Shown here: positions 7,454-35,744 of the stretch, piece after piece
How the letters are laid out: the number at the start of each line of letters is the position of its first letter
Position numbering within the stretch: position 1 is the first letter of the stretch
Assembly (NCBI GenBank): GCA_039208735.1
Contig: JBCCQY010000027.1
Coordinates: 10,915-74,914 of the forward strand
Origin: Myxococcota bacterium
GTDB taxonomy: Bacteria; Myxococcota_A; UBA796; GCA-2862545
Reading direction: 5' to 3'
Length of the DNA: 64,000 nucleotides
Notes under the pieces: generated by a model
Databases searched by the model: none
The model's input: only the letters and a program-made list of their open reading frames with translations
What the model was told of the DNA's origin: nothing
Program-made: the position numbers and the translations under genes

Positions 7454-7470
7454 CCCCGCGTCGGTAGCCC

Positions 7471-8112
7471 ATGGTGAGGCGCATGAGTGAAGAAGAACTC
7501 GCACAACGCGTGGCATCGACAGACCGCCACGACTTTGACGCCATGGTGGAGCTTGTCGAGGCCCTCGCCAAGGCGGGGCGAAGCCGACGGCAAGCGCTCG
7601 ATGAAGCGTATGGAGCCACGTTCCCCGACGAATTCTTCGCCATCGCCAAGGCCCGAACCCGCGACCGAGCGCCGCGCGGTCGTTATTCGAACCTGCCGTG
7701 GCAGCTCGTTGCGGACGCCCCCAGGCACGACGCTACGTTTCCCCAGGGCCTCGAGGATGCAGCACGGAGCGTCGACCCTGACCTGATCCCGCTGCTGATG
7801 ATTGGGGGCATCGACTACGTGTATGGGGGGAGCTTGCTCTGCTATCGCCTCGACGAGCTTCGCGACGGGCGATCCACCCTGTTCGGATTCCACTACAAGT
7901 CCATTCCCCCGTACTCGGAGGCGACCAAGTACGGCGAATCACTCATTGCGGTGCTGCTCGACCATTGCCGCGACGAGTACGGGGGGCTGGAGAGCGAGAT
8001 CGATGTCCCTTACCGACGGGCGGCGGGTGCGGCGGACGCCTCCGATCTCGAGCGGTCCCACGACCGACTCGCACGCGTTGAAGCCATCTATCGGTCGTTG
8101 ACCCGTTCGTAG
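7471..8112 (+). CDS. hypothetical protein, candidate cognate immunity protein
   Basis: 213 aa, 17 bp after toxin-like gene; YGATFPDEFF...PW...DPDLIPLL...GG..LCYRLDEL...GESLIAVL pattern loosely recalls SUKH/DUF2228-type proteins. Confidence 0.6.
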   Translation: MVRRMSEEELAQRVASTDRHDFDAMVELVEALAKAGRSRRQALDEAYGATFPDEFFAIAKARTRDRAPRGRYSNLPWQLVADAPRHDATFPQGLEDAARSVDPDLIPLLMIGGIDYVYGGSLLCYRLDELRDGRSTLFGFHYKSIPPYSEATKYGESLIAVLLDHCRDEYGGLESEIDVPYRRAAGAADASDLERSHDRLARVEAIYRSLTRS

Positions 8113-17490: not shown

Positions 17491-18954
17491 TCAAGACTGT
17501 CGAAGACCGAAGCGGCGGATCAGTGAGTGGACGTACCCTCGATGCAGCCCCAATTGCTGTGCGGCCTGCGTCACGTTGCCCTCGCTCCGCTCCAGGGTTT
17601 CCTGGAGCAGCTGTGCCTGAAACCGTCTGGTGGCCTCCTGCCAAGTGAGCGGTGACATATCGCTTCTCATGCTTGCTTCGGGAAACGCGTGGCGTGGGAG
17701 GACCACCTGGCCTCCTTCTCCCGTACACAACACAACAGCTTCCTCGAGGGCCTTTGCCAGTTGACGAACGTTGCCTGGCCATTCTCTGGACTCGAGCTCC
17801 CGAAGCAGTTCAATAGAGGCGGTGCACCTGGGGAGTGACGGTTGCCGAAGGCAGAAGGCTTCAATCACGTGTTCGGCAAGGACCGCGATATCTTCGGTCC
17901 GCTCCGCGAGCGTCGGCATCCGAATCGTAAACGACTTTAGACGATAGTAGAGATCCTTTCTGAACTCCTTCGATTCAACTAGTTCAGCAAGGTTCCGATT
18001 GCTCGCACTGATGATGCGAATGTCCGCGGGCCGAGTGGCCCCACCAACCGGGGCATAGGTTTTTGATTGAAGAAGTTCGAGCAGGGCCGACTGCGTCTCG
18101 TAGTTGAGGGCATCGATCTCATCGAGGAAGAGCGTTCCCCCGATTGCACGGTCAACATGGCCTCCCACGGCAGTATTGGCGCTGGTGAAGACTCCCTTGT
18201 GGTGGCCGAACATCTCACGTTCGAAGACACTGCGCGGCACCGCGCCACAGGTAACAGAGTGAAAGGGGCCTGCACGACGTGCACTGTTGCGGTGGATGAT
18301 ACTGGCCAGGGTCGACTTTCCGGTCCCCGTGTCTCCTGTGATGTGGATGTCGATCTCGATCGGAGAAGCGCTTGCGGCGCGCTTCAACATCGCCGCGAGT
18401 GCTGCACTCCGCCCTACGAGTTCGTCACAGGAAAAGCGACTCCTCACATCGGCGGTATCATCTGCTTCCTGTAGCCTTCGAATCCGCTCCACGGCGGGAG
18501 CGAGCATCGCCGCCAGCGCCCTCACAAGATCTACATCATCAGATTCAAACGCCTCGCCATCCATCCGATTCTGAATGTAGACGACGCCGATGGGAAGGTC
18601 ACCCCTGAGAATGGGTGCGCAGACAACGGCCTCGATCTGGAAGTTCCGGGCCGAGATAGAAGCCAGCTTGGGGTCAAGCATGGCGGAGACCGTCGAAATC
18701 ACATCGACCGCCTCTCGCGCAGCTTTCACGATGGCACTTGACGTGCGAGCTCGAACCTCCCTTAAGGACGTCTCGTCATCACACCCCTGTGCCCTCCACC
18801 AGAGCGCCGCTCCGCGGTCGTCTTGCACCTCGACGTACGCCTGGCGGGCCTGGGTGAGTTCGACGAGGAGGGGCAATACTCCCCCAATCAGCTCACCACT
18901 GTCGCTGACATGCCACAAATCAAGTGCACGCTGCAAGAGTTGTCGTCGGTCCAC
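17491..18954 (-). CDS. sigma-54-dependent Fis family transcriptional regulator with GAF domain
   Basis: GAF (VVCAPI...GVVYIQ), Walker A GDTGTGKS, GVFTSA in place of GAFTGA, FLDEID, WPGNVRQL, C-terminal HTH; GTG 18954 follows GGAGG. Confidence 0.9.
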   Translation of the reverse strand: MDRRQLLQRALDLWHVSDSGELIGGVLPLLVELTQARQAYVEVQDDRGAALWWRAQGCDDETSLREVRARTSSAIVKAAREAVDVISTVSAMLDPKLASISARNFQIEAVVCAPILRGDLPIGVVYIQNRMDGEAFESDDVDLVRALAAMLAPAVERIRRLQEADDTADVRSRFSCDELVGRSAALAAMLKRAASASPIEIDIHITGDTGTGKSTLASIIHRNSARRAGPFHSVTCGAVPRSVFEREMFGHHKGVFTSANTAVGGHVDRAIGGTLFLDEIDALNYETQSALLELLQSKTYAPVGGATRPADIRIISASNRNLAELVESKEFRKDLYYRLKSFTIRMPTLAERTEDIAVLAEHVIEAFCLRQPSLPRCTASIELLRELESREWPGNVRQLAKALEEAVVLCTGEGGQVVLPRHAFPEASMRSDMSPLTWQEATRRFQAQLLQETLERSEGNVTQAAQQLGLHRGYVHSLIRRFGLRQS

Positions 18955-19144
18955 GAGGTGCCTCCAGCCATGAGCATCGGACACCTCACCGCGAAGTACA
19001 ATCCCCCATTCCGGGGACACTGTCAGCAATTGAAGACACCACTTCTAGGGCCGCAACAGATACCTGACACCTTCAACCGGCGAACCGCCACATCCGGGAT
19101 GGAACGAGGCTTGCTGTTCAAAAGCCAAACCTCGGAGGACCCAA

Positions 19145-19909
19145 ATGATGGTCGCTGAAATTCAGAACGTCCTGGGAGCCCTGGCCGCAAAGGCAACAAG
19201 CGCCGCGTTTGCTGAACTGCTGGCCGTCGACAACGACGTGAAGATCGGTCGCGTGGCGGGGAGTGGCCTCGACGGTGATGTTCCGAGGACCGGAACGGGC
19301 TCCGTCTGGATGGTCATTCCCGAGCTGTGGACCTGCCGCCGCCAACTCCCTCTCAATGGCCTCGCCCGCCTAGGTGATGACCTGGTCGGGTTCGTGACCC
19401 GGGACAAGCGCATCGCGGGCATGGTGCTGGTTCGCAACGCCTCTCGACGGCCTGGAGCAATGGCGCTCGACACTTTGAGGGAAGCAATCCAAGACCTGCG
19501 GCCACCTAACGAGACCGGAGAATCCTGGATCGCCGATCGACGGGGGCGCCCCCTTCTATGGCAAGCGGATCGACCCGCGCCAGCCATCATTCCCAACGTA
19601 CATGAGGGGCCCCTTCTGTTTTGCGGTGGTGCGTACCACACGACTCAGGCCCTTACTGGCGGAGAGACGCCGCGATTCATGGTCGCGCGTATGCCTGCTC
19701 GTTGGCTCAACATCACACCTCTCCTAAGGCTGTCGCCCCACCAGATCGAAGTGGCGGAGAGTGCCGCCGCCGGAGCGACCATTCCCGAGATTGCCAGGTC
19801 ACTGAACCGCAGCGACGAAACCATAAAGTCGCATCTTCGGGAGGTGTACCGGCGGCTGGACGTTGGAAGTCGGCTCGAACTCGCCGAGATTTGCAACGCG
19901 GCTTGGTGA
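19145..19909 (+). CDS. LuxR-type HTH transcriptional regulator
   Basis: C-terminal LSPHQIEVA...GATIPEIARSLNRSDETIKSHLREVYRRLDVGSRLEL. Confidence 0.85.
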   Translation: MMVAEIQNVLGALAAKATSAAFAELLAVDNDVKIGRVAGSGLDGDVPRTGTGSVWMVIPELWTCRRQLPLNGLARLGDDLVGFVTRDKRIAGMVLVRNASRRPGAMALDTLREAIQDLRPPNETGESWIADRRGRPLLWQADRPAPAIIPNVHEGPLLFCGGAYHTTQALTGGETPRFMVARMPARWLNITPLLRLSPHQIEVAESAAAGATIPEIARSLNRSDETIKSHLREVYRRLDVGSRLELAEICNAAW

Positions 19910-19963: not shown

Positions 19964-21139
19964 GTGGCGAGACACGCAGTGGTGGTCGGAGAGGGCGTAG
20001 CAGCATGCGCTACGGTACTGACCCTCGAACGTACAGGGTTCGATGTCACACGGATGCGTTCGGTTCCCGAGTCCGACAGATCGACGATTTTAGGACCGCC
20101 CGATGATCTGTGGATTGCACTATGGAAGAATGGAGTGAGTTGTCTACGGGCACTCGGAATCACAGACTTTCCAGACTCCAACACTCCAAAGTTCGAACGT
20201 GCACAATTTCGAGAGCATCGAGGAGCTGATGTAGCCACCGTATCGCTCGATCCAGGTGCGTTCTTCGTCCAGCGGCGCGTTCTTCGGCAACGGATTGAAA
20301 AGGAACTCAGAGCGCACCCGCCTGAGTCGGAGCTATGGACCGCCTGCGACCAACCCAACAGCGTGCATATTCACGACATGAGTGGGGGAGTGAAGAGCTG
20401 CGATTTGCTGATCGGTGCAGACGGCATCCGTGGTCGCACACGCCAAATGCTCCATGGCAACGCGGGCATACGATCGGCGAATCAACAGGTCGTGTGCGGA
20501 TTCACATCACTGAACGAGCCCTCCCTTCGTGCTGCTGTCGATCGATTCATTCCTGGAGGGTTAGCGCTGTCCACGGCTGACGATGCCTCGTTGTTCGTCG
20601 GGCTGCGAGTCGCAGACGATAGGCTGTATTGGTACTGTGCAGGTCTCGCTTCATTGGGAACGTGGGACTCTGTACCCGAACTGACCGCAGTGCTCGCACG
20701 ACGATTCCGGTCGTTTCATGAGCCGATCCCTACCATCCTGGAGCACGGAACTCCGTCTCCACAAGGCCTTTTCGTGGAGGATCTTCGACCCGGAACACGG
20801 TTTACGCGCGGGCGAATCGCGCTGGTCGGAGATGCCGCGCATGCCATGACACCGGACCTTGGTCAAGGCTGCAACCAGAGCCTCGAAGACGCTGTGTCGC
20901 TTGGAAAGGCTCTTGGGAGGAAGACGAGCGTCCTTTCCGCGTTGCGGGACTTCGCGCACGAGCGGGAACCTCGCGCAGGGCTGATCACGGAAGTCTCCTA
21001 CCTGCTCTCTCAAGCCACGCTGCCTGGCTCGTCGCTGGGAGCCGTCGCACGGGATGGTCTAATGTGGTTGGGTCGACCCTTTCACGTTGCTTCCATGCGC
21101 TGGATCCTCGACGGAGGTCCGGCCCAGGCCGCAGGATGA
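19964..21139 (+). CDS. FAD-dependent monooxygenase
   Basis: GEGVAA, DLLIGADGIRG, LVGDAAHAMTPDLGQGCNQSLEDA. Confidence 0.9.
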   Translation: MARHAVVVGEGVAACATVLTLERTGFDVTRMRSVPESDRSTILGPPDDLWIALWKNGVSCLRALGITDFPDSNTPKFERAQFREHRGADVATVSLDPGAFFVQRRVLRQRIEKELRAHPPESELWTACDQPNSVHIHDMSGGVKSCDLLIGADGIRGRTRQMLHGNAGIRSANQQVVCGFTSLNEPSLRAAVDRFIPGGLALSTADDASLFVGLRVADDRLYWYCAGLASLGTWDSVPELTAVLARRFRSFHEPIPTILEHGTPSPQGLFVEDLRPGTRFTRGRIALVGDAAHAMTPDLGQGCNQSLEDAVSLGKALGRKTSVLSALRDFAHEREPRAGLITEVSYLLSQATLPGSSLGAVARDGLMWLGRPFHVASMRWILDGGPAQAAG

Positions 21140-24100
21140 CCGCAACCGCATCTCGATCCTTTCCGGAACGCTTCACCTGGAAGGAGGCGCTTGGAAGCGG
21201 CCAACTTGGCGAAGTCGATCTTGTTCATGACCACGACCTTGAAATTGACGTGGCCCTGAAGAACCTGCCGACTCCCGACCCAGGCCTCATCACATCGCTA
21301 AAGCACGAGTTCCGGCTTGCCAGTAGCCTGGAACATCGCAACCTGGTGCGTCTGTACGAACTATTGATCGACGATCATCATTGTGCATTCACAATGGAAC
21401 CGATCCATGGGGACCTCTTTACGATTGTCTTGAGCCAAGCACTGGAGGACGGAGACGACGAGCGTGTTCGATCGTTGGTGAGTCAACTCGTGGCTGGCGT
21501 GGCCCAACTCCATGACGCCCACATCATCCATCGCGACGTGAAACCGACAAACGTCCTCGTTGAACATCAATCGGATCGAGTGGTCGTACTGGACCTTGAT
21601 CTCGCCTGGTCAACCAGGCTCGGCATGCCGAGAAGCGCTAGTGGAACACCGCAATACATGGCGCCGGAGGCCCTGTGGGGCCGAGCCAACTATGAATCGG
21701 ATTGGTATGGGGTGGGAGCAACCCTCTGTGAAGCCGTCTGGGGCGCACCCCCTTCACAGGTGGTCCGTCATTCAGACGGGGTGCCCAGTTGGCTTGTTTC
21801 GGTCATCGACGAGTTGCTTTCGGAAAAGCCAGAAGATAGGCCCAATCGCTTTGAACTGCGCCAGAAACTTGGTCTCGATGCCCCATCCGCACCGCCCTAC
21901 GTTCCTCTGCTCGGGCGCAAGGCGGAATTGGCGAGATTCGACCAAGCCCTGGAGAACCTTCGGCGCGGATTGCCCGACGCACTGCTGGTGACGGGCCCAT
22001 CGGGAATGGGCAAATCTCGGTTGCTCGAGGAGTTTCTGCTTCGGGCACGCCCAGAATCAGATGTCCTCATTCTCACCGGCAACTGCCGAAATGCCGAAAC
22101 GCTTCCATTTAAGGCGATCGACCCATTGGTGGCGTCACTGACCGACCACATCGACCGTCGGCGAAGGGAAGATGCCGCGTGGTGGGACCCACCTGAGGAG
22201 TGGTGGCCCGCAACCTATTTGTTTCCTGAGCTGGTCCAGGTCCTGTCCCCACCCCCACCAAGTGGCGTGGTTCATCTGCCGGAAGCCCGACGCCGGCTGG
22301 CCATCGTGGCATTGCGAGGCCTCTTAGGGTGGTTGGCCCAGCAGTCGAGGCTGGTTTGGATGCTTGATGACGCTCAATGGGGAGACGAGGCCAGTGCTGG
22401 GCTTCTGCGCCAGCTCGTGACTGAACCCACGCCACTTCCAGTGTTGATGGTGGTCGCTGCCCGGACCGAACCTTCATTAGGCCCCTTTGTTGAGGCGTGG
22501 CGCCTGTCCACCCAGCCCGATGTGGTCCAAATGCAGCGATTGCTGACAGCGGACATTGAAGAACTCCTGGGTGAAACTATCGATCCTTCGATGGTCAAAC
22601 AGGTTGCGGAACAGTGTGATGGCAATCCGTTCCTGCTCCAAGAAGCTGTTCGAAATGCCACGCTCGGCCGAACTCTCAACATCCACGATGTGGAAGGGGA
22701 GCGTCTCCGTGGGTTGAGTCCCATCGAACGGGATCTCGCTACGTTACTGGCTCTTGCCAAAGGCCCCGTCCCTCGTGCCGCCGTCCTGCAAGCCATCGGA
22801 GCCAGCGCTGACGCTTTTTCGGCGATTCTGAGCCTTGAGAGACTAGGGCTACTCCACGTCGTTGCAGGTGACCGTACCTTGGCGACCGGGCACGCGCGGT
22901 ACCGTGAACGACTTCTTTCGGAGGTTGATGACCGGACACGACGTTCGGGACACGGACGGCTGGCCGATGCACTGGCTCGCTTTCGAGGGTTGTTGGGTCC
23001 TGCTCGATTGCTACCTCATCTCATCGGAGCGGAACGTTTTGGAGAGGTTTGCCAAGTCGCGCTTGAAGCTGCGGCGACTGCTCAGGGTACCTCGAGATTT
23101 GAGGAAGAGGCTGCCTATCTCGAAATGGCCATTGAATATGGTCCGGTCTCCGACCGCTGGTCATTGATGGAGCGCCAGGGGGACGCTTGGCGCGCGGCGG
23201 GACTCGGACCAAAGGCAAGCCAGGCATACCTAGAGGCCCTTGCAGCGTCGGATCAACGTGGAAGCCTGGCGCAGCGCCGGCGGCTCTTGGTCAAAGCGGG
23301 TCAGGAACTCATCCGTCATGGAGAACAGGCCCGCGGCACAGAACTTCTCCGTACTGCGTTGCGTGAACTGGGCGTACGAGCCCCTCGCACGGCCAACGCA
23401 GCTTTGATGATGGGAGTGTTTACCCGCCTGCCCGTGTACCTGTGGGGGCTCATCAGAGCGCCGCATCGCGAGGACAAGCAACTTCCCGCGCGGGTCGAAG
23501 AACGGCTCAACGCACTATGGATGGCGACCAACGCCCTTTCTCAGGCCGATGTGACCCTAAGCTTCGCGCTGTCTGGGCGCTATCTGGCTGAAGCGGTTCG
23601 TTGTCGTGCTCCCAAGCACATGCATGCGGCACTCGGCACGGAGGCAGCCATCCACGCGTCCATCGGCAACGCGGCCTCGACGCAACGTGTCGACGAACTG
23701 TTGACTCACATCACTTCGCTGGCCGATGCCACGGATGAAGAGTGGCGCATCGGCACCCCTGCGTTCATTGGCGTAGCCGCCTGGCATCTGGGGCGTTGGG
23801 CTGAAGCGGAGGCGGCGAGCATTCAAGCGACCAATGCCTTTCGGCGTTCCCCGATTGGTCATGCGTGGGAATTGGCCACGATGCAGCACTACGCTTTCTC
23901 CGCCCGGTTCTTCCGCGGCGACATTGAAGGTTTGCAGGACGCGGTTGATGAGGCACGCGAAGCGGCGATTGATCGGGGTGATCGCCATGCGGCATCGGCG
24001 CTCGCGCTTGGAGAGCCGGGCCTGGTGCGGCTGCTCGAGGGACGGCCGGAAGAAGCGCACCGGGCACTCAAGGAGGCGGATCAGGCTGGTTTTGTAGCGG

Positions 24101-24522
24101 GTCCTGACTTGACGACCTATTACTACACTGTCCTAGAGGGGCATCTCGCCTTGTTCGAAGGGCGTTTCCACGACGCTAGGCGAGTCCTTGAGGAACGTTG
24201 GCCTCTGTTTCGCCAGGGCCGCGTCTTGGATGTCCAGAACGCCAGGGCGTGGCTCACGTACCTCAAGGGCATCGCCATTGCGCGAACCAGTGAACGACAA
24301 CAGGGAGCCTCCAGGTTGCGCGCCTGTGTCCGCACCTTGAAGGCATGCACCACCCGCCCCGCTGCGGGGATGGCCTCCGCCCTCGAAGCGAGACGGGCAA
24401 AACTTCTCGGCCGCCCCACTGAGGCGGCAGAGGCTCAAGCTCGTGCAGACGAGCAGCTGGCCAAGGCCGACACCTGGATTCTGCGTAGCACGTCCGAAGG
24501 GGCAAGCTGGCTTCGTCTATAG
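21136..24522 (+). CDS. Ser/Thr protein kinase fused to AAA/STAND ATPase and TPR-like helical region
   Basis: GSGQLGEV, VALK, HRDVKPTN, GTPQYMAPE; Walker A GPSGMGKS; LDDAQWGD; ATGA overlap with monooxygenase. Confidence 0.9.
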   Translation: MTATASRSFPERFTWKEALGSGQLGEVDLVHDHDLEIDVALKNLPTPDPGLITSLKHEFRLASSLEHRNLVRLYELLIDDHHCAFTMEPIHGDLFTIVLSQALEDGDDERVRSLVSQLVAGVAQLHDAHIIHRDVKPTNVLVEHQSDRVVVLDLDLAWSTRLGMPRSASGTPQYMAPEALWGRANYESDWYGVGATLCEAVWGAPPSQVVRHSDGVPSWLVSVIDELLSEKPEDRPNRFELRQKLGLDAPSAPPYVPLLGRKAELARFDQALENLRRGLPDALLVTGPSGMGKSRLLEEFLLRARPESDVLILTGNCRNAETLPFKAIDPLVASLTDHIDRRRREDAAWWDPPEEWWPATYLFPELVQVLSPPPPSGVVHLPEARRRLAIVALRGLLGWLAQQSRLVWMLDDAQWGDEASAGLLRQLVTEPTPLPVLMVVAARTEPSLGPFVEAWRLSTQPDVVQMQRLLTADIEELLGETIDPSMVKQVAEQCDGNPFLLQEAVRNATLGRTLNIHDVEGERLRGLSPIERDLATLLALAKGPVPRAAVLQAIGASADAFSAILSLERLGLLHVVAGDRTLATGHARYRERLLSEVDDRTRRSGHGRLADALARFRGLLGPARLLPHLIGAERFGEVCQVALEAAATAQGTSRFEEEAAYLEMAIEYGPVSDRWSLMERQGDAWRAAGLGPKASQAYLEALAASDQRGSLAQRRRLLVKAGQELIRHGEQARGTELLRTALRELGVRAPRTANAALMMGVFTRLPVYLWGLIRAPHREDKQLPARVEERLNALWMATNALSQADVTLSFALSGRYLAEAVRCRAPKHMHAALGTEAAIHASIGNAASTQRVDELLTHITSLADATDEEWRIGTPAFIGVAAWHLGRWAEAEAASIQATNAFRRSPIGHAWELATMQHYAFSARFFRGDIEGLQDAVDEAREAAIDRGDRHAASALALGEPGLVRLLEGRPEEAHRALKEADQAGFVAGPDLTTYYYTVLEGHLALFEGRFHDARRVLEERWPLFRQGRVLDVQNARAWLTYLKGIAIARTSERQQGASRLRACVRTLKACTTRPAAGMASALEARRAKLLGRPTEAAEAQARADEQLAKADTWILRSTSEGASWLRL

Positions 24523-24942
24523 AAGAGTGAGATTGTCTCGATCCCTACCCGCGAATGGCTTCCCAAAAGCCTTCGCCGAAATCGGGCTCTTACCGATGCG
24601 TTCCCCAATCTGCTGGGTTGCCCACAACGACTGTAGGATTTCGGCCGATTTGTCAGGATCGTCGATCCGTGCGGCAACCTTACTTTTTGAGCGCAATTCT
24701 TGCCACAGTCGTTGGAGCCGTGCAGGTCCGTCCTGCAGCACACATGGGGGGCCATTCTCGCCGCAGGTACATCCTCCTCCTCCGGCACCTGTGCAAGAAT
24801 GTGCACCTGAGGCGTGCTCGATGCCGTTGCATACCGTGAAGTCACAATCATCTACGAGCGTCGTTTCTAGAACGATGAATCGGATGTTTCCCTGCCAGAT
24901 TGCGAGAGAATTGGTGGAGTCATCAATCTCAATCTCTATCAA
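24517..24942 (-). CDS. small Cys-rich hypothetical protein
   Basis: TTGA start/stop overlap with the oxidoreductase; six Cys in CDFTVC...SCTGAGGGGCTCGENGPPC. Confidence 0.55.
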   Translation of the reverse strand: MIEIEIDDSTNSLAIWQGNIRFIVLETTLVDDCDFTVCNGIEHASGAHSCTGAGGGGCTCGENGPPCVLQDGPARLQRLWQELRSKSKVAARIDDPDKSAEILQSLWATQQIGERIGKSPISAKAFGKPFAGRDRDNLTLL

Positions 24943-27581
24943 CGATCTTCCCTCCGGTTGAGCAGGACCGCCAGGTGATTGACCAGGGCCGTCCCAATGC
25001 CCGAAAAGGACTGAGCGTAGCTCCTGATGGCCTCACCGAGGGAGTCCGGCTTATTGGACCCGAACACACTAGATTCAATCTTGAGAATATCGACGAGGTG
25101 GGGAAGCCCGCGAGCGGTTAGCTCACGATCCAGCCGCCGCATAAACTCTAGGTCGTCAAGCTCACGCTCGTCGACATCATACAGTGAACAAGGTGTGAAC
25201 AGCATCTCGTTCGTGACCTTCATGCGAGCATTCAACAGCGCATTTGTCGCGCGTCGGGCAGACTCGTTTGCAGCTTCCATCGTTGGGATTCGTGTACTCG
25301 TAGGAAGCCATGTCCCACAAAAGACCACGGTATCTCCAAACCACGCTCGGTAGCATGCTGTTTCATACTTGCGCCAAAGCGCAGCGAGCTCAACCGTATT
25401 TACCAGGTAGGGGCTCGAATTCTTAATGACCTGACGCGGACTCGACAGGGTAGGCTCTCCAAAGTGGATGGCCTGATCGATGAAGAAATCGGGCGGCGTC
25501 TCGGGAAGATCGGCCCCCGCAGATGACAAACCCCTGCTAAGCTGTTGCCAGACCTCCTCTGCAAGCTGTTGTTCATCGCACTTCCAGGCAACTTTTCCGG
25601 TTCGGGACTCTACGTTCCAAGCCCCAATGATCACAGAAATGGCACCCCGATAGCCGAACTCTCGGCTGCGTCGTCGACCTCGGAACTGTCCCTGGGAAAT
25701 CGAAGACAGACGCCACTCGGAGTCGGGGTAGTAGATGTGACCATCCAGAATTTCGTAGTCACGATGCATGAAAAACTGGATGCCTGCGAAATGTCGGTAC
25801 GGAAGTTTTTCAGGCGGAGCCATTTCAGTCGTGACCGCCTGCTCATAGGTCTTGACATCCTCCAACGTGACTTGGTCCCAGGTGGTCTCCCGTTGTTCGA
25901 TGTGTTGCAAACCGCTCGCAACCAAATCCAGTGCCAACGCAATGGGCGAAGCCGCAAGCTCATCCCGAATGGGTTGCTGGAGGTCTTTGTGGAGGCTCTC
26001 GTCGATGGAGTCCCGAAGCCCGACGCCTAGCCGGGCAACGGTTAAGGGGGGCAATGCCAACGCGATGTACCGCCTTTGAGAGGGCGTACGGTCAGCAAAG
26101 GGAATGTTTCTTTTGTGTTTTGAGCCGTAGTCAAGTTGAATCGCAGGATTACCCTGCTCGGAGGTCACGAAGCGAAGCGAATCGAGGTTGCGGCGGAAAG
26201 CCGTTACAACGTATTCTTCGCGAAGGAAGTCAATCCAAGGGTCGAGCCAGGCCTCGGTGGTGGGACCGTTGAGCGTACCGTCGATGACGGGCTCTTTTCG
26301 GATGTGAGACAGTAACAACTGCATGGTGATGGAGCCGAAGGTTCGAGCATCCGCTAGATCGGCGCGCAGCCCAACGAGGGCTTGTGGCCAGTGCACTAGG
26401 GCATTGCGGTAGGCTGGTCCGGCGGACTCACCTCTCGAAAATGTGAACCAGGTGGTGCGCTCGTATTGTTCCCGCCGAGCTGGACAGCTGGTGAGGTACC
26501 GAAAGGTGGCGAGTTGGCCTCGTTGAGCGTCCTCGTTGGTAATGCCAAGTTCGTGCTGAATGGCATCCGCGAACCGAGAGAATTCCGCCCAAGACTGCTT
26601 CAGCGTCCGTGGTAATACGACAGGCCGGTGGCCAGACTCGGAGGCAAAGGCGTGCTGATCCACTGAGATCAGGTTGTCGAACACACTATGCAGAGATGGT
26701 TCAAACTGTCCTGGGTCCCAAAAATCCCCCGGAAAAGCACTCTGCAACGCACGATTGATGGAAGGCTGGAACGGTCGACCTGGGATGAACGTGCGACGCA
26801 TGGTGTCAAACAGGTGTTTGTAGAACCCTGGAAAGAATCGGTAGCCGTGTTCGCCAGGAACGAGTTCCTCATGCAGAGCGATGACGACGCACGGCTGAAC
26901 CTTGCTTGGATCGGGTTTGAAGAGCCGACTCAGTTCGTCTTCACGACGATAATCTGTCGCCTGCAACACCTCCTCTGCAGAGCCGAGCCTACCGCTGCGT
27001 ACAACCAAGGGAAAGGGGGGCCGAGGTCCCGTGACGTCCTTTCCCCGTTGGAGGAGGTCCTGAAGCTCGTTCTTGACTTTCTCGGCATTTCGTTCGGCAT
27101 CCTGGGCGTTGCTCGCGATCCCACCCACAAAAACCAGGCTTGCCCAACCCTTGGGAATGTCTGCTTCAGCTGCCCAATCGAGGATTCGCGTGGCGATGCC
27201 ACGCAGTTGCTGGGTTCGGTCCTTGTCGGACATCACGAGGCGAGGCCAGCGACCTGCACGCCGCTTCTTTGTCTCGGTCTTCACGTCGGCCCACAAGTCC
27301 GTCGGGGGCCGGAGATGTCGCGGTCGATTGTCTACCCGAAGAGCCGTCTGGTGAAACCAGCCGATCTCCGGTAACATTTTGCTGAAGATCGGTGCTGCGC
27401 CGTACTGGTTTGCGGCAAGACCACCGAGCCTCGGATCCGAGAGCGTCCGGCTATCGACAGCGGCTTCAAACAGCCCGATGCTAAATCCGCGTTGAGCAAG
27501 TTCATGGGCGGCTGTCATGCCGGCTACACCTGCACCCACAATGTTCACAACGCCGGGCTTAAGGTCGGTTTCGTTGATCAT
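24939..27581 (-). CDS. FAD-dependent oxidoreductase (HpnE/carotenoid desaturase-like, amine oxidase fold) with large insertion
   Basis: GAGVAGMTAAHELAQRGF...E...LGG; PGEHGYRFFPGFYKHLFDTMRR; LNGPTTEAWLDPW; GIQFF; TMEAANESARRA; AGGAG RBS before ATG 27581. Confidence 0.85.
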   Translation of the reverse strand: MINETDLKPGVVNIVGAGVAGMTAAHELAQRGFSIGLFEAAVDSRTLSDPRLGGLAANQYGAAPIFSKMLPEIGWFHQTALRVDNRPRHLRPPTDLWADVKTETKKRRAGRWPRLVMSDKDRTQQLRGIATRILDWAAEADIPKGWASLVFVGGIASNAQDAERNAEKVKNELQDLLQRGKDVTGPRPPFPLVVRSGRLGSAEEVLQATDYRREDELSRLFKPDPSKVQPCVVIALHEELVPGEHGYRFFPGFYKHLFDTMRRTFIPGRPFQPSINRALQSAFPGDFWDPGQFEPSLHSVFDNLISVDQHAFASESGHRPVVLPRTLKQSWAEFSRFADAIQHELGITNEDAQRGQLATFRYLTSCPARREQYERTTWFTFSRGESAGPAYRNALVHWPQALVGLRADLADARTFGSITMQLLLSHIRKEPVIDGTLNGPTTEAWLDPWIDFLREEYVVTAFRRNLDSLRFVTSEQGNPAIQLDYGSKHKRNIPFADRTPSQRRYIALALPPLTVARLGVGLRDSIDESLHKDLQQPIRDELAASPIALALDLVASGLQHIEQRETTWDQVTLEDVKTYEQAVTTEMAPPEKLPYRHFAGIQFFMHRDYEILDGHIYYPDSEWRLSSISQGQFRGRRRSREFGYRGAISVIIGAWNVESRTGKVAWKCDEQQLAEEVWQQLSRGLSSAGADLPETPPDFFIDQAIHFGEPTLSSPRQVIKNSSPYLVNTVELAALWRKYETACYRAWFGDTVVFCGTWLPTSTRIPTMEAANESARRATNALLNARMKVTNEMLFTPCSLYDVDERELDDLEFMRRLDRELTARGLPHLVDILKIESSVFGSNKPDSLGEAIRSYAQSFSGIGTALVNHLAVLLNRREDR

Positions 27582-27984
27582 CGGTAGTCTCCTGACAGTA
27601 CTCACGAAAGCCCTGCAGGAGCGCGGGGGCTTCTGGGGAACGAATGCAGGCATTCAGGAACACGCCAAGGGCTGACTCCAGAGCCAGGAGGTCCTGGAGC
27701 GTGCCGACGAACTCCAACTCTCCCGAGCCCAAAGCGGCCAGCAGCGTAGTGTCGTGATCCAAAAGGCGAAGCAGCGCACCCGGCGACGTGCGCACGGTCA
27801 CGGGGGATGACCTTGCAGGGGCTGTTCTTAGCTGGGCGTCGGTTGCGCTGAGACAGAAGCGCTCGTCAGAGCATTCGACGAGCACGCGGACGCTCGCGAT
27901 CAAGGTCACCACCTGCGCATACAAAGCCGGGTGGCGGCGATGCACCATCGAGACGGCAGGTTCGACGAATCGACTCCGGAACAC
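27559..27984 (-). CDS. SCP2 sterol/lipid-binding domain protein
   Basis: VTVRTSPGALLRLLD...LLAALGSGELEFVG pattern typical of SCP2. Confidence 0.7.
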   Translation of the reverse strand: MFRSRFVEPAVSMVHRRHPALYAQVVTLIASVRVLVECSDERFCLSATDAQLRTAPARSSPVTVRTSPGALLRLLDHDTTLLAALGSGELEFVGTLQDLLALESALGVFLNACIRSPEAPALLQGFREYCQETTDDQRNRP

Positions 27985-27985
27985 A

Positions 27986-29023
27986 TCACGCTCCCAGGAA
28001 TTCGAAAACGGTGTTGCACGTCAGTTCGATGGGCCCGTCGGCCGTCTTGCCCTGCACATGACAAGAACCTGAAACCTCGTTGATGATCGTCACCCCGAGG
28101 TCGTCGTCGTTCGGAATGATCACCTGCGCAACGGCGCGGCTTTCGAATGTGACGTAAACGGAGGCTGTGGCGTGGTGTGCCTCAATGATGACCCGGGCCG
28201 GGATATCCGTCGCCGATCCTTGAGAGAGAAGGGCCATGACTGGCGGCAGCTTGTGAACGTACGAAGGGCGAAGTAATCCTTCGTGTCGAATCGTAATCTC
28301 GGTGTCGCGAAAGGCCTCGGCAGGTCGAGCACCATGCCAAAGGAACGCGGTCTGCATCAGGATTCGAGTAAGGGAGCGGTCGTTGAGTCTGGCGAATACG
28401 AAGGACCATGGATTGTGGGGCTCCGCGGGAATCGCAAACCCCCATTCCCATGCGAAGTCACGGCCCCACCTAAAGTGACCCCAGTTGTGGTCATGATAGG
28501 CTGGAGTTCGGTCGAGTCGCAGTCGCCGTTCCCCCACGCTGACTTCGCCCGTTGCATGGAGTCGAGGCACCACCACCCAGTGGATCGGTGGGCTATCTCC
28601 AACCACCACGTTGTAGACGGGCACCGGCAAGGCCATAGGGGAAAGCGACACGTCGAGACGAATCTCTGGGGTGCTGTGGGTTTGTGCCCACAAGCGGTAT
28701 CGACCGTTCTCAAAACGCAATCCACTGGGCCCGAAATCTGCTTCGATGGTTCCACCTCGCACGCCGATGGCTCCGGCGGGAAACGTGTCGATCGCACCGT
28801 GCCAGCGGTCATTCATCTGAACCATCAAAGTTTGACGGACGTCTGTGTCACTCCCCGATGGATGGTCCACCTCGCTGAAGTTCACCAGCAGATCAAGACC
28901 GCCCGCATAGATGCAAAAGTGCATCCACTCCTTGAATCCAGGCTCAAAGCCAATTCTGGACGGCGGCCGACGAAACCAGTCGGTTCGTTCAATGGCTCTC
29001 GCCAACTCGGCTCTCCCGATCAT
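27986..29023 (-). CDS. CrtC/AttH-like (carotenoid hydratase / tocopherol cyclase fold) protein
   Basis: FKEWMHF, HWVVVPRL, AYHDHNWG, WEWG motifs. Confidence 0.7.
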   Translation of the reverse strand: MIGRAELARAIERTDWFRRPPSRIGFEPGFKEWMHFCIYAGGLDLLVNFSEVDHPSGSDTDVRQTLMVQMNDRWHGAIDTFPAGAIGVRGGTIEADFGPSGLRFENGRYRLWAQTHSTPEIRLDVSLSPMALPVPVYNVVVGDSPPIHWVVVPRLHATGEVSVGERRLRLDRTPAYHDHNWGHFRWGRDFAWEWGFAIPAEPHNPWSFVFARLNDRSLTRILMQTAFLWHGARPAEAFRDTEITIRHEGLLRPSYVHKLPPVMALLSQGSATDIPARVIIEAHHATASVYVTFESRAVAQVIIPNDDDLGVTIINEVSGSCHVQGKTADGPIELTCNTVFEFLGA

Positions 29024-29298
29024 CGAAGCAAGTCGTTTAGGAAATGGCCATGAGCTTGCTCAATTGGCTCCTGTGTTCGCGGCGGTGCCACACGTTCCAG
29101 GGACTCAGCGAGCGCAATCAAGCCAAGGACAGCCAACGTGACCGACGACGGTTCTCCATCGGGGATATCGCCTGTTGAAGGCGGAGCAAGCTCACCGAGC
29201 CAACGGTGCAGACGCTCGGTGCCAGACAACATGCCGAGCACCGCTTGCAGCAAAAGATTCTGATCAGAATAGCGGTTGGGCCGCCGGTCCAGGATCAT
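29020..29298 (-). CDS. small hypothetical protein
   Basis: ATGA overlaps on both sides within the operon. Confidence 0.65.
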   Translation of the reverse strand: MILDRRPNRYSDQNLLLQAVLGMLSGTERLHRWLGELAPPSTGDIPDGEPSSVTLAVLGLIALAESLERVAPPRTQEPIEQAHGHFLNDLLR

Positions 29299-29681
29299 TG
29301 CGGCACACCCTTGATGCCGTCTTCCAACACTTCTTGAACTCGATCCGCAACCGAGGGATCCGTGGCTGCTCGTACGATGGCTTCGACGATGGCAGTGGGC
29401 AAAACAACCTGATCATCATCGTCGAACGTTCGCAACGGGAGACCATCCCAGATGACGCGGACCCGTTCTACGAGTTCAGAGCCCTCGAGGCGGGCCAGCC
29501 ACTCGGCACCGGAGTCTGTCCGGCTGAATCGACGTCCCTCCTGGACAAGTGATGCAAACAGTGCCTGTGCCGCCACGGGATGTCCAAGCACCGACCGTCT
29601 CAACGCCCGCAATGCCTCGGTGACCTCGTCAACGGCATTGTAATGGAACACCACACAGCCTGGCGCGTGGTCGTCGCTCAT
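29295..29681 (-). CDS. hypothetical helical protein
   Basis: ATGA overlaps; HPVAAQALFASLVQEGRRFSRT...W. Confidence 0.7.
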   Translation of the reverse strand: MSDDHAPGCVVFHYNAVDEVTEALRALRRSVLGHPVAAQALFASLVQEGRRFSRTDSGAEWLARLEGSELVERVRVIWDGLPLRTFDDDDQVVLPTAIVEAIVRAATDPSVADRVQEVLEDGIKGVPQ

Positions 29682-30304
29682 GTGGACTCCTGACCGTAAA
29701 GCACAACGGGAATAGGTGCCAAGTCGCTGCCAACCTCTAGTGCGGCAAATCCCCGTAGGGTTTCCTTGGGTGTGACATCACCGAAGGCCAGCGTGACGAC
29801 CACCGTGATGGTTTCTCCCGGACGGAGATGGATGGTGGCAGGGCTGAACGAGGTCTGCCACGTCTGTTTGCCCAGCTGGATCGTGGTCGGGAACCGAGCT
29901 GACAGCCACTGCCCCAGCCGGTTCTCAATGAGAAGTTCGCCTTTGGCTTCGTCAGACGATGCTCTGCGCAGTTCGAGTGGCCGATCAACTCGGTGGGGCG
30001 CGGAGCGTTGGGTTGAAGTCGCGCCCGATGTCCCTTCGAGCCAGCCGATGAGGACCCGGTGGGCGCGCGTCTGGAGTTGGAGGACCTCTCGTAAGGTTCG
30101 GACCGCCAAATCTACCGAATCGTAAGCAATGCCATGCGGGGAATCCTGATTGTGCGAGGAATCCGGACGTTCGCTTAAGGAGTCAAAGCGGACTTTGGCC
30201 TCGAGAGCATCCGCGAGGCCACGAACCAGTTCGTCCTCTCGTTCATGGCGTGCTCGAGCCTCCGCTCGGCCCGCCGATTTGATGTCGTCGTCCCGTTCGC
30301 CCAT
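29678..30304 (-). CDS. hypothetical protein with C-terminal Ig-like beta domain
   Basis: GAGG RBS; C-terminal IENR...FSPATIHLRPGETITVVVTL. Confidence 0.65.
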   Translation of the reverse strand: MGERDDDIKSAGRAEARARHEREDELVRGLADALEAKVRFDSLSERPDSSHNQDSPHGIAYDSVDLAVRTLREVLQLQTRAHRVLIGWLEGTSGATSTQRSAPHRVDRPLELRRASSDEAKGELLIENRLGQWLSARFPTTIQLGKQTWQTSFSPATIHLRPGETITVVVTLAFGDVTPKETLRGFAALEVGSDLAPIPVVLYGQEST

Positions 30305-30312
30305 GCGCTACC

Positions 30313-31401
30313 TCACCGCGTGCGCGCGACGACATACGCCGTCAATCCAGCGAGGAAGTCCCAATGCACGGATGTCGTCGCTGGGACACGATGCAACGAG
30401 GACGTCGCGGAGTCAAAGGCACGACGAGCCCGAATCGCACGCAATCGAGCCTGTTCTTTGGCGTAAGAGATGCTTCCCGCTTCGCGGATGCGATTGTGAA
30501 GCCAGTGAATCTGGTCCCAGTGTTGCTTCGAGTGGTCACGGTTGGGATCCTCCGGCCGGGGCGCCGTGAGGATCGACAATGCTTGGTCTCGCTCCGACGG
30601 GGTTGCATGGCGGAGAAAATGCAACACGATGAGGGTGCGCTTCCCCTCCCATAAGTCGCCTGCAATCTCTTTTCCGTAGCTGGCTGCCGTGCCTTCGAGG
30701 TTGAGGACATCGTCGGTGATCTGAAACGCAGCCCCCATCAAGGTAGCCCACCTTAAAAGTGAGGAAAGGCGTTGCTCTGGCACGCCGGCCAGGATCCCCC
30801 CCACCCGAATGGGAGTGAGGAAGGTGTACCAAGTCGTTTTCCGATGGACCATGCGTAGATAGTCGCGAGCCGAGAGCTGCCATTGTCCGCGTCGAATCCA
30901 GCCAAGCTCGATGGCTTGCCCCTCCGCCGACCGCCGCGACATCTCAGCGATGGCGCTCAAGACTCGCAACGCTGGCCCCAACCCGACGAGAGCGGTGTTG
31001 TCGAGGAGTGGACCGAGGCACAACCCAAGCATTGCATCGCCCGTGTTGATCGCCAGCGGCACGCCAGCCACACGGTGGAGCGTTGGCGCATCACGGCGGG
31101 CCCAGCTGCCATCCTCAATGTCGTCGTGGATCAGAAACGCGTTGTGGTAAAGCTCAAGGACCGCTGCAGTGGGAAGCACCGCCTCAGACCGGCCTCCAAG
31201 TGCACGGCAGACCGCGTAGGCTAACGCAGGTCGTAGCATCTTCGCTTCGCGAAACGGGTACTCGCGAACCAGATCGTAGAGGTCTGCGTCGAACGGGGTG
31301 TTGTTGGGCACGATGCGCTCTATCTCCGCGAGGACTTTTCTTCGCACCTCGAGAAGATAGTCTTGAACGTCTTTTTCGGAGAGAGGGGGCGAGCTTGACA
31401 T
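30313..31401 (-). CDS. trans-polyprenyl diphosphate synthase (GGPP synthase-like)
   Basis: KMLRPAL, FARM ELYHNAFLIHDDIED...RR, GQAIEL, KTTWYT, SARM variant FQITDDVLN, GKEIAGDLWEGKRT. Confidence 0.92.
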   Translation of the reverse strand: MSSSPPLSEKDVQDYLLEVRRKVLAEIERIVPNNTPFDADLYDLVREYPFREAKMLRPALAYAVCRALGGRSEAVLPTAAVLELYHNAFLIHDDIEDGSWARRDAPTLHRVAGVPLAINTGDAMLGLCLGPLLDNTALVGLGPALRVLSAIAEMSRRSAEGQAIELGWIRRGQWQLSARDYLRMVHRKTTWYTFLTPIRVGGILAGVPEQRLSSLLRWATLMGAAFQITDDVLNLEGTAASYGKEIAGDLWEGKRTLIVLHFLRHATPSERDQALSILTAPRPEDPNRDHSKQHWDQIHWLHNRIREAGSISYAKEQARLRAIRARRAFDSATSSLHRVPATTSVHWDFLAGLTAYVVARTR

Positions 31402-35082: not shown

Positions 35083-35183
35083 ACCCTTGCGACGTCCCCG
35101 GGTCAGGGACGATGGGTAGGTGCATGCGGAATTCGCCGCGTGATGTAGCCACTCTCGACCGGGATGAACGGATAGGAGAGAGT

Positions 35184-35744
35184 ATGCTTCATCGGGCCTT
35201 CTTCCTCGGCGCCATCCTTGCCGCGTGCGCCGATGGTTCCGACGACAAGATGAACACCGGCGATACCGCGGCGGATGCCGATGCGGACACCGACGCCGAT
35301 ACGGACGCCGACACCGACGCGGATACGGATGCCGACACCGACGCGGATACGGACGCCGACACCGACGCAGATACCGACGCAGATGTGCTGGATATCGCCG
35401 GGACTTATATGTCGAACTTCGGCGCGACCTTCCAGATCTCCGAGATGGAGGTCTCGGTGGACTACGGAACGCCGGACATCTACGCGGTGGCGAGTTTCGA
35501 CAATGCCGCCGGTGTCATCATCGCACAGAACGCAACGATGAACGCCTATAATGGTGATTTATGGTCGCGATTCGAATATGTGGTTGACGGGAAAACCGTG
35601 TTTTGGTGCCAGCAGGCATTCGCCGCGGAGACCCAGCTCGACGCCGAGAACGCCGAGCCCGCCAACCGCGATGATCCGTCGATGGGCGGCTGTGGCGTTC
35701 CCGTGAACAACTTCCCCTATACGGTACTCACGCCCCCGAAGTGA
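35184..35744 (+). CDS. lipoprotein with DTDA linker, downstream of cobalamin riboswitch
   Basis: AGGAG RBS; LAAC lipobox; ~120-aa domain AQN...N...WSRFEY...WCQ...GGCG. Confidence 0.85.
   Translation: MLHRAFFLGAILAACADGSDDKMNTGDTAADADADTDADTDADTDADTDADTDADTDADTDADTDADVLDIAGTYMSNFGATFQISEMEVSVDYGTPDIYAVASFDNAAGVIIAQNATMNAYNGDLWSRFEYVVDGKTVFWCQQAFAAETQLDAENAEPANRDDPSMGGCGVPVNNFPYTVLTPPK
35274..35384 (+). repeat. coding 12-bp tandem repeat (about 8 x DTDA)
   Basis: GAYACSGAYGCN units. Confidence 0.9.

Follow-up and report, generated by a model that had tools for sequence, protein, structure and literature searches.

A conserved, probably isoprenoid-related gene cassette with an AttH-fold protein in Myxococcota, Actinomycetota and other bacteria

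Results

Operon organization and host genome

A 64,000-nucleotide stretch of a Myxococcota bacterium genome (assembly GCA_039208735.1, contig JBCCQY010000027.1, positions 10,915 to 74,914; the whole stretch is called the window hereafter) carries a minus-strand operon, which is the subject of this study. From its upstream end, the operon comprises gene A (31401-30313, 362 aa), encoding a trans-isoprenyl diphosphate synthase with a likely C20-C25 product; B (30304-29678, 208 aa), whose product has an N-terminal amphipathic helix and a likely Ig-like domain; C (29681-29295, 128 aa), a core gene for an all-helical protein of an unnamed family; D (29298-29020, 92 aa), for a small hydrophobic two-helix protein; E (29023-27986, 345 aa), for a predicted AttH double beta-barrel enzyme; F (27984-27559, 141 aa, GTG start), a core gene for a putative, divergent SCP2-like lipid carrier; G (27581-24939, 880 aa), for a flavin adenine dinucleotide (FAD) enzyme related to HpnE and containing large inserts; and H (24942-24517, 141 aa, TTG start), an orphan open reading frame (ORF).

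All eight ORFs are open, and the junctions from A to H are +8, -4, -4, -4, +1, -23, and -4 bp (gaps positive, overlaps negative); the eight coupled, same-strand genes described in the first-pass annotation were thus borne out. H had been taken as the eighth, Cys-rich member of the biosynthetic operon. It does contain 6 Cys in 141 aa, but no homologue was found in any of the loci described below, and among 17 candidates from a 5.8-billion-protein search only H itself was recovered; H is therefore placed outside the cassette. Since it has a GGAGG ribosome-binding site and its stop-free run is improbable by chance (P = 0.0045), H is probably a local passenger gene. The conserved unit consists of the seven genes A to G and a flanking STAND gene, the latter lying beyond the block originally annotated.

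The 9.4-Mb host genome contains three distant prenyl synthases and otherwise no paralogue close to any of A to G. The G+C content (GC) is 58.6% for the operon compared with 63.9% for the genome, and the third-position GC (GC3) of G (0.62) and E (0.65) lies at the 1st to 4th percentile among the genome's 4,791 long ORFs. A full-length E homologue was present in 2 of 40 relatives and in none of the four same-genus genomes. The low GC3 of G and E, together with the absence of E from the same-genus genomes, fits a horizontal acquisition of the block. No clear transmembrane segment was found in any operon protein (maximum KD19, 1.61). Pfam scans covered nearly all window ORFs of at least 100 aa, as delimited by a crude gene caller, and no squalene/phytoene synthase, terpene cyclase, or UbiA was found among them, in agreement with the earlier statement that the window holds no head-to-head synthase, terpene cyclase, or UbiA.

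Conservation and architectures of the cassette

A search for E homologues gave 575 matches, and a profile made from 64 of these sequences gave at least 295 confirmed stretches in GTDB genomes. The best 80 of the at least 295 stretches were kept as a similarity-ranked sample, and the hidden Markov models (HMMs) were built from the same loci. Conserved synteny elsewhere, the lack of which had been named beforehand as one refutation of the proposal, was clearly found. The synthase gene was present in 62 of the 80 E loci, B in at least 26 (a minimum; the detection of B also follows taxonomy), C in 59, D in 46, F in 62, and G in 42. The synthase gene, E, and F occurred together in 61 loci, 19 of which lacked G; some of these 19 were cut by contig ends, and several have long flanks. 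A, C, D, E, F, and G were all present in 41 loci, with an identical order in 41/41 and a single strand in 39/41, A being inverted in L003 and L005. Furthermore, pairwise identities covaried between the proteins (A-E rho 0.89, A-C 0.87, A-F 0.81, A-G 0.70; overall range 0.69-0.89), and 0 of 300 permutations reached the observed rho, a statistic that shared ancestry inflates since kin are not independent. The carriers span Myxococcota, Actinomycetota, and others, including the cultured Sorangium, Mycolicibacterium tusciae, M. chlorophenolicum, and Ruegeria; the nearest homologues come from Myxococcota.

Three architectures were observed, two of them forms of type I. In type I, the Myxococcota and other carriers, including the window, have A-(B)-C-D-E-F-G adjoining a kinase-AAA-TPR gene, and the Actinomycetota have an AAA-GAF-cyclase gene (L039), a shell gene, and then A-C-D-E-F-G with a short helical ORF. 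Type II consists of A, mostly three to four B paralogues, usually C, and then E and F, without D or G; it also has a repeat-rich beta protein and often an S-adenosylmethionine (SAM) methyltransferase gene, and it was seen in Ruegeria, Solirubrobacteraceae, Gemmatimonadota, Acidobacteriota, Tectomicrobia, and others. A, E, and F are the invariant core (61 loci), suggesting that the substrate of E likely comes from A and that G and the methyltransferase would be alternative tailoring enzymes. Moreover, since type II keeps E without G, E is likely the committed enzyme of the cassette and does not need G. The type II repeat protein (120-170 aa; L058:4165-4608, L049:1998-2384, L016:287-787, and others) has xELPxIxL beta motifs in repeats and, at its C-terminus, a conserved motif that contains Cys; it looks structural, and the one member scanned had no Pfam match. 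Cytochrome P450 genes, possibly for extra tailoring, lie near some cassettes (L034:3916-5310, by Pfam; L041:15327-16754 and L023:14629-17374, by clustering).

The remaining 17 of the 80 loci (9 archaeal and 8 other bacterial) contained a distant E only, which stood by itself or in an ABC-permease-like setting; these loci do not represent the cassette. In Methanosarcinales (L059, L061, L064-L066, L068, L069, L071, and L073), stand-alone E relatives with apparent signal peptides share the motif YHDHNWG, for which the search selected. Distant C-terminal E domains occur in ABC-permease-like operons of Gemmatimonadota and others (L070, L072, and L075-L080).

No published description of this gene set was found in the literature searched, which covered few subscription journals. 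The comparisons with known systems below draw on excerpts of PMC13010261, PMC4717167, PMC8346489, PMC13739066, PMC11061730, PMC5805349, and bioRxiv 10.1101/2025.10.20.683597.

The AttH-fold protein E

The predicted structure of E (predicted local distance difference test score, pLDDT, 94) is an AttH double beta-barrel, the fold that defines the AttH-like superfamily, with a VIA Z of 27.8 to 2ich (root-mean-square deviation 3.0, 286 residues aligned) and a Foldseek E value of 1e-11. Further fold matches were kievitone hydratase (Z 24.4), CghA (24.4), and 25-phosphosteroid lyase (22.6), and the next match scored 8.5. The AttH part of the CrtC/AttH-like label first given to E thus held up by structure comparison. 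W149, Y176, and D178 of E match W241, Y266, and D268 of CrtC and are invariant in 64/64 sequences, which had been chosen by phmmer and not by motif. In the excerpt of Hiseni et al. (PMC4717167), H239, W241, Y266, and D268 are essential in CrtC, and the sequence context AYLDSNEG is given by its primer table; the corresponding motif of E is AYHDHNWG, with W149 lying 27 residues upstream. An hhalign comparison of E with the host genome's own CrtC-like protein was not significant (1.1%, E value 0.048) and aligned the two at the W...YxDxNxG motif. No Pfam match to PF07143 (CrtC) was obtained for E at an E value of 0.05 or below, in an insensitive test that the genome's CrtC-like protein also failed to match.

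The relatives of E that act on isoprenoids (CrtC, kievitone hydratase, Hgs, and 25-phosphosteroid lyase) add water or eliminate phosphate at tertiary carbons, as far as the excerpts go. We considered whether E might rather be a non-canonical terpene cyclase, with a cation cascade started by D178, or a pericyclase acting on a polyene desaturated by G, either of which would yield a cyclic di- or sesterterpenoid. E has many invariant aromatic residues, its fold matches CghA, Phm7, and Fsa2, and its Atlas feature match is a cluster with 18% tocopherol cyclase; in addition, the CrtC mechanism has been modelled on squalene-hopene cyclase (PMC4717167, in excerpt), hypothetical proteins cyclise head-to-tail chains in the gromomycin pathway (PMC13010261, in excerpt), and encapsulated terpene synthases are known. 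However, the motif of E matches that of the CrtC-type hydratases, and type II cassettes have no G, so a diene made by G cannot be general. We therefore regard a cyclase as an unlikely alternative, albeit the strongest of the four discussed here, and lean slightly toward hydration or lyase chemistry rather than cyclisation.

Synthase A and the origin of the prenyl chain

A matched PF00348 with 185.9 bits (cut-off 27, E value 1e-54), which substantiates its first label of polyprenyl diphosphate synthase. The motifs of A are intact (KxLRP, HDDIED..RR, GQ, KT, DDxLN, and GKE..GDLWEGK), include both Asp-rich motifs, and are conserved in approximately 58 rows of the alignment. The nearest solved structure is the Thermus geranylgeranyl diphosphate (GGPP) synthase 1wmw (265 bits; next, 204). 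A was below every NCBIfam cut-off, including that of the Family 2 encapsulin cargo polyprenyl transferase model (NF041169; 167.7 bits vs. a cut-off of 450).

No head-to-head synthase (PF00494), as is expected of carotenoid and hopanoid clusters, was found inside the cassette. The sole PF00494 gene of the genome lies on contig C43, in a separate carotenoid cluster (L119:4057-10860, G000) with a prenyl synthase, a lycopene cyclase, a desaturase, a glycosyltransferase, and a CrtC-like gene. This cluster is self-contained, and its CrtC-like gene escapes Pfam. PF00494 was present in 28 of 37 carrier genomes and had no match in the other 9, which include the holder of L039; the genomes without a match are mostly draft metagenome-assembled genomes (MAGs).

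Flavoenzyme G and carrier F

The homology between G and HpnE spans 438 columns and runs from the FAD motif as far as the TMEAA motif at the C-terminus (hhalign 98%, E value 1e-13). G scored 22.5 bits with the HpnE model TIGR03467, whose cut-off is 283, and the best E value among 24 members was 3e-10. A second set, made up of HpnE-like oxidoreductases, gave an hhalign probability of 92% with G, indicating that G belongs to the wider clan and not to HpnE specifically; its earlier HpnE/desaturase-like label is kept in the sense of homology and dropped in the sense of family membership. No solved relative specific to G was found beyond the FAD-binding start. G is likely a tailoring gene of the type I architecture, and a flavoprotein of the phytoene-desaturase family has been described, in an excerpt of Garcia et al., to hydrate archaeal lipids.

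F matched PF02036 with 16.2 bits (gathering score 21.3, E value 0.013), and 7 of 41 family members matched at an E value of 0.01 or below. The best PDB match of the F family profile is SCP2-like (E value 0.0025), and the profile also matches UbiJ. The SCP2 label originally given to F is backed by the top PDB matches of the family profile, the Pfam match of F alone being weak, and F is a putative, divergent SCP2-like carrier.

The resemblance of E to CrtC and of G to HpnE, the UbiJ match of F, and the PF00494 genes in the 28 carriers would also be accounted for if the cassette acted in trans to tailor a carotenoid, squalene/hopanoid, or quinone that other genes produce, that is, if it were a variant of a known pathway. 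Against this stand the synthase that the cassette always brings along, the 9 of 37 carriers without PF00494 (two Ruegeria genomes have a weak match only, E value approximately 1e-20), the host genome's separate carotenoid cluster, which has a synthase, a cyclase, a desaturase, and a CrtC-like gene of its own, and the failure of G at the HpnE cut-off. Tailoring in trans is accordingly considered very unlikely.

Small proteins B, C, and D and the actinobacterial shell gene

The N-terminal helix of B has a hydrophobic moment of 0.68. Weak Pfam matches were seen in the B family to Phasin_2 (2 of 29, below the cut-off) and Ig_VWA7 (1 of 29). By HMM, natural B-C fusions made up 4 of the 150 best-ranking homologues of C (P0159, P0183, P0209, and P0238), suggesting that B and C are likely one functional unit; P0157, P0168, P0224, and P0265 are long forms resembling these fusions. 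P0230, in which synthase, C, and D share a single frame with garbled stretches, was treated as a frameshift artefact. The C profile covers 528 clusters at 50% identity, has no Pfam family, and matched vinculin entries that were rejected as generic helical matches. In the AlphaFold model of C (pLDDT 78; predicted template-modelling score, pTM, 0.51), the best fold match had a Z of 5.5 and nothing was prominent; HexA/HepS entries, which would point to a HexA/HepS-type small subunit, were not among the matches listed. A complex prediction for A and C gave an ipSAE of 0.00 twice, which, being without controls, is evidence in neither direction. D occurs mostly in G-containing loci and has conserved LLG motifs.

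In 18 of the 80 loci, all actinobacterial (L021-L029, L031, L036-L039, and L042-L045), A is immediately preceded by an unannotated gene of approximately 260 aa (at approximately 7300-8100 in most loci). The Atlas model of this putative shell protein has the HK97 fold, with TM scores of 0.77-0.81 to PF04454 clusters, and the predicted structure is nearest to that of Family 1 encapsulins. By sequence, PF04454 (Linocin_M18) was matched by 1 of 14 shell members (E value 0.0053), the sole PDB match of the shell profile was maritimacin (E value 0.55), and hhalign of the shell family against three canonical mycobacterial encapsulins was negative (0.45%). When 121 genomes from a single mycobacterial family were compared, the shell gene and C turned up together in three and separately in none; they lie approximately 1.3 kb apart, and one of the three genomes was the search centre. 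Encapsulin-terpenoid links have been reported for Family 2 in the excerpts of PMC8346489 and PMC13739066; in the portion of the 2021 census supplement (PMC8346489) that concerns these carriers, DyP or cysteine desulfurase shells are the only ones entered for M. tusciae, M. chlorophenolicum, and Root265 (in all 4 occurrences). The shell gene is mostly missed by Pfam, and several related Atlas clusters may have other cargo.

Such components could also mean that the main task of the cassette is to form a lipid-protein body inside the cell (a polyisoprenoid granule or compartment), with B, C, D, and the type II repeat proteins as its coat and the encapsulin-like shell as an alternative container. 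The amphipathic helices and Phasin_2 matches of the B family, the type II loci with three to four B paralogues and a repeat-rich beta protein, the HK97 fold of the shell gene, and the co-occurrence of the B family and the shell gene in one locus only (L024) are in line with this explanation. Nevertheless, the phasin matches are below the cut-off, the detection of B is a taxonomy-tracking lower bound, and A is nearest to short-chain GGPP synthases, and we find a lipid-protein body improbable.

Neighbouring genes

The flanking gene (21064-24522, plus strand), convergent with the operon, encodes a Ser/Thr kinase-AAA(STAND)-TPR protein by Pfam. It matched ten cassette-adjacent kinases with 456-216 bits over most of its length, compared with at most 122 bits for the 106 other matches in its own genome, where its AAA part has only 2 other matches. 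Of the 33 G loci whose flanks reach at least 3.5 kb on either side, 30 have a STAND gene at most 2.9 kb away; the orientation of this gene varies, and in the relative G005 it is divergent from A. The STAND protein is a co-inherited partner and possibly a sensor.

An FAD monooxygenase gene (PF01494; 19964-21139, plus strand) overlaps the start of the kinase gene, and its homologues in 6 cassette loci make it a recurrent accessory gene. Further upstream (window 17491-19909), a GAF-sigma-54 activator gene is divergent from a LuxR-type gene and has homologues flanking L015, L019, and L020. A -24/-12 motif with one mismatch lies at 19100-19115, directly upstream of the LuxR-monooxygenase-kinase run; such sigma-54 motifs are not in excess in the window (18 vs. 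14.9 by chance).

Caspase-domain (Peptidase_C14) genes adjoin some myxobacterial cassettes, at L010:7691-11350 and L047:6389-8818 (both Pfam-confirmed) and at L018:5223-7728. A defence or conflict system, in which the STAND sensor switches on a toxic or membrane-active isoprenoid, would go with the patchy, foreign-looking island, with the STAND gene next to it, and with the caspase-domain genes that adjoin L010 and L047. However, PADLOC 2.0 gave 0 matches for the eight operon proteins and hit only generic kinase/cyclase domains of their neighbours, and the other window genes are unlike a defence island in Pfam. A defence system is the least probable of the alternatives, and we give it little credence.

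Elsewhere in the window, a 1765-aa protein with an extracellular contractile injection system (eCIS) core domain (PF13699; 2156-7453) is followed by a 213-aa ORF, and the two may be a polymorphic toxin-immunity pair. A lipoprotein-like ORF (35112-35744) contains a (DTDA)n low-complexity repeat.

Discussion

Proposed pathway

We are highly confident that A to G form a dedicated isoprenoid cassette. The reading that we put forward is that this conserved, patchy cassette produces a dedicated, modified isoprenoid lipid with no head-to-head condensation step, an AttH-fold acid enzyme taking the place of a known terpene synthase; we judge it to be evenly poised between right and wrong. In the proposed scheme, A would make a C20-C25 prenyl diphosphate. 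D178 of E would then protonate a trisubstituted double bond, and water would quench the tertiary cation. E may also release the diphosphate, because there is no phosphatase or prenyltransferase in the cassette and a phosphate lyase is among its fold relatives. That E hydrates a C20-C25 chain by acid catalysis, or frees it of its diphosphate, is a proposal that we could defend or doubt to the same degree. F would carry the hydrophobic intermediate between the soluble enzymes, and G would tailor the chain by flavin redox chemistry, a role for which type II cassettes without G often have a SAM methyltransferase instead. B, C, and D may serve to arrange the enzymes or to cover the product; in actinobacteria, part of the pathway would be enclosed by the encapsulin-like shell. 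Finally, sensing of the product or control of the operon would fall to the neighbouring STAND protein.

Several observations weigh against this reading. The fifth residue before the first DD is Ala in A, compared with Trp in the Thermus GGPP synthase, and replacement of the bulky residue at this position by Ala may allow C25 products, which makes the chain length uncertain. The 28 of 37 carriers with PF00494 and the draft-MAG status of the other 9 count on the same side. The fold of E matches three Diels-Alderases (CghA, Z 24.4; Fsa2, Z 23.7; and Phm7) about equally. The position of the CrtC residue His239 is Ile147 in E, where other invariant His residues (35, 177, and 179) may substitute. 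To our knowledge, the known hydratases act on finished neutral lipids and not on prenyl diphosphates, so the action of E on a diphosphate would be without direct precedent. The C-terminal subfamily of the kinase occurs in unrelated contexts in 4 of 38 relatives without full-length E, and a STAND neighbour was seen in only 1 of 21 non-G loci, several being short contigs. Neither the shell gene nor a PF04454 gene was found in the window genome, and encapsulation is thus not general.

The idea that the cassette product is the ligand of the STAND protein is tentative and rather doubtful. A still bolder version, a new route to a bacterial isoprenoid signal in which E would be a third kind of terpene synthase acting on a prenyl diphosphate, B, C, and D a scaffold or a Family 1-like encapsulin the container, and the lipid read by a STAND kinase or cyclase, appears unlikely to us as a whole.

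The first-pass annotation had proposed an undescribed, non-canonical isoprenoid system. The conserved cassette, the AttH-fold enzyme, the SCP2-like carrier, and the lack of a description in the literature searched speak for it, and the part that concerned H fell away. The proposal is thus supported in part: the suggested cyclase activity of E and the suggested role of the small helical proteins as partners of the synthase stay conjectural, B and C are likely one functional unit, and G is dispensable in the type II architecture. The STAND neighbour and the encapsulin-like gene of the actinobacterial cassettes are additions to that annotation. As a cluster family, the cassette is compact and testable, with sequence clusters numbering several hundred and with cultured carriers. 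It has no recognised terpene synthase and would therefore likely be overlooked by rule-based mining. If E acts on a prenyl diphosphate, the AttH fold would be added to those that carry out terpene-synthase chemistry. The shell gene would link a Family 1-like encapsulin with the metabolism of terpenoids, and a STAND protein co-inherited with a lipid pathway would be a direct way to seek a ligand for such receptors.

Comparison with known systems

In the excerpt on CrtC and the crt clusters (PMC4717167), the cassette finds a counterpart in an AttH-type enzyme, with the Trp, Tyr, and Asp of the catalytic set aligned and a prenyl synthase and a flavoenzyme alongside; it differs in that the His239 position is not conserved, E gives no PF07143 match, the cassette has no CrtB, and B, C, D, and SCP2-like genes are additional. 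The hydroxylated glycerol dialkyl glycerol tetraether (hydroxy-GDGT) synthase Hgs (bioRxiv 10.1101/2025.10.20.683597, in excerpt) is likewise an AttH hydratase on an isoprenoid chain, and its gene overlaps that of a redox enzyme, the desaturase Ted. Unlike the cassette, Hgs has an archaeal ether-lipid substrate and the B12-radical SAM partner Ted. No Ted-like neighbour was seen in the nine archaeal E-like loci by gene size and N-terminal sequence, no Pfam scan being made there, and there was no radical-SAM gene among the Pfam matches of the window. The HpnCDE squalene pathway shares with the cassette the homology of G to HpnE over its full length, whereas the cassette has no HpnC or HpnD, and the G family, with 750-880 or more aa and inserts, remains below the TIGR03467 cut-off.

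According to the excerpts of PMC8346489 and PMC13739066, Family 2B encapsulins are found with 2-methylisoborneol (2-MIB)/geosmin synthases and polyprenyl transferases, which resembles the actinobacterial shell gene beside a polyprenyl transferase gene. However, in its predicted structure the cassette shell of approximately 260 aa comes closest to Family 1 (PF04454), A falls below the cut-off of the cargo model, and there is no class I cyclase. The gromomycin cluster (PMC13010261, in excerpt) needs a guanidine prenyltransferase and Rieske oxygenases, not seen in the cassette; as a likeness, it makes a terpenoid from a head-to-tail chain without squalene, by unannotated enzymes, and occurs in Actinomycetota and Myxococcota. 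Taken together, the cassette is real and conserved and is apparently undescribed; it is built from known folds, and there are precedents for unusual enzymes in terpenoid clusters.

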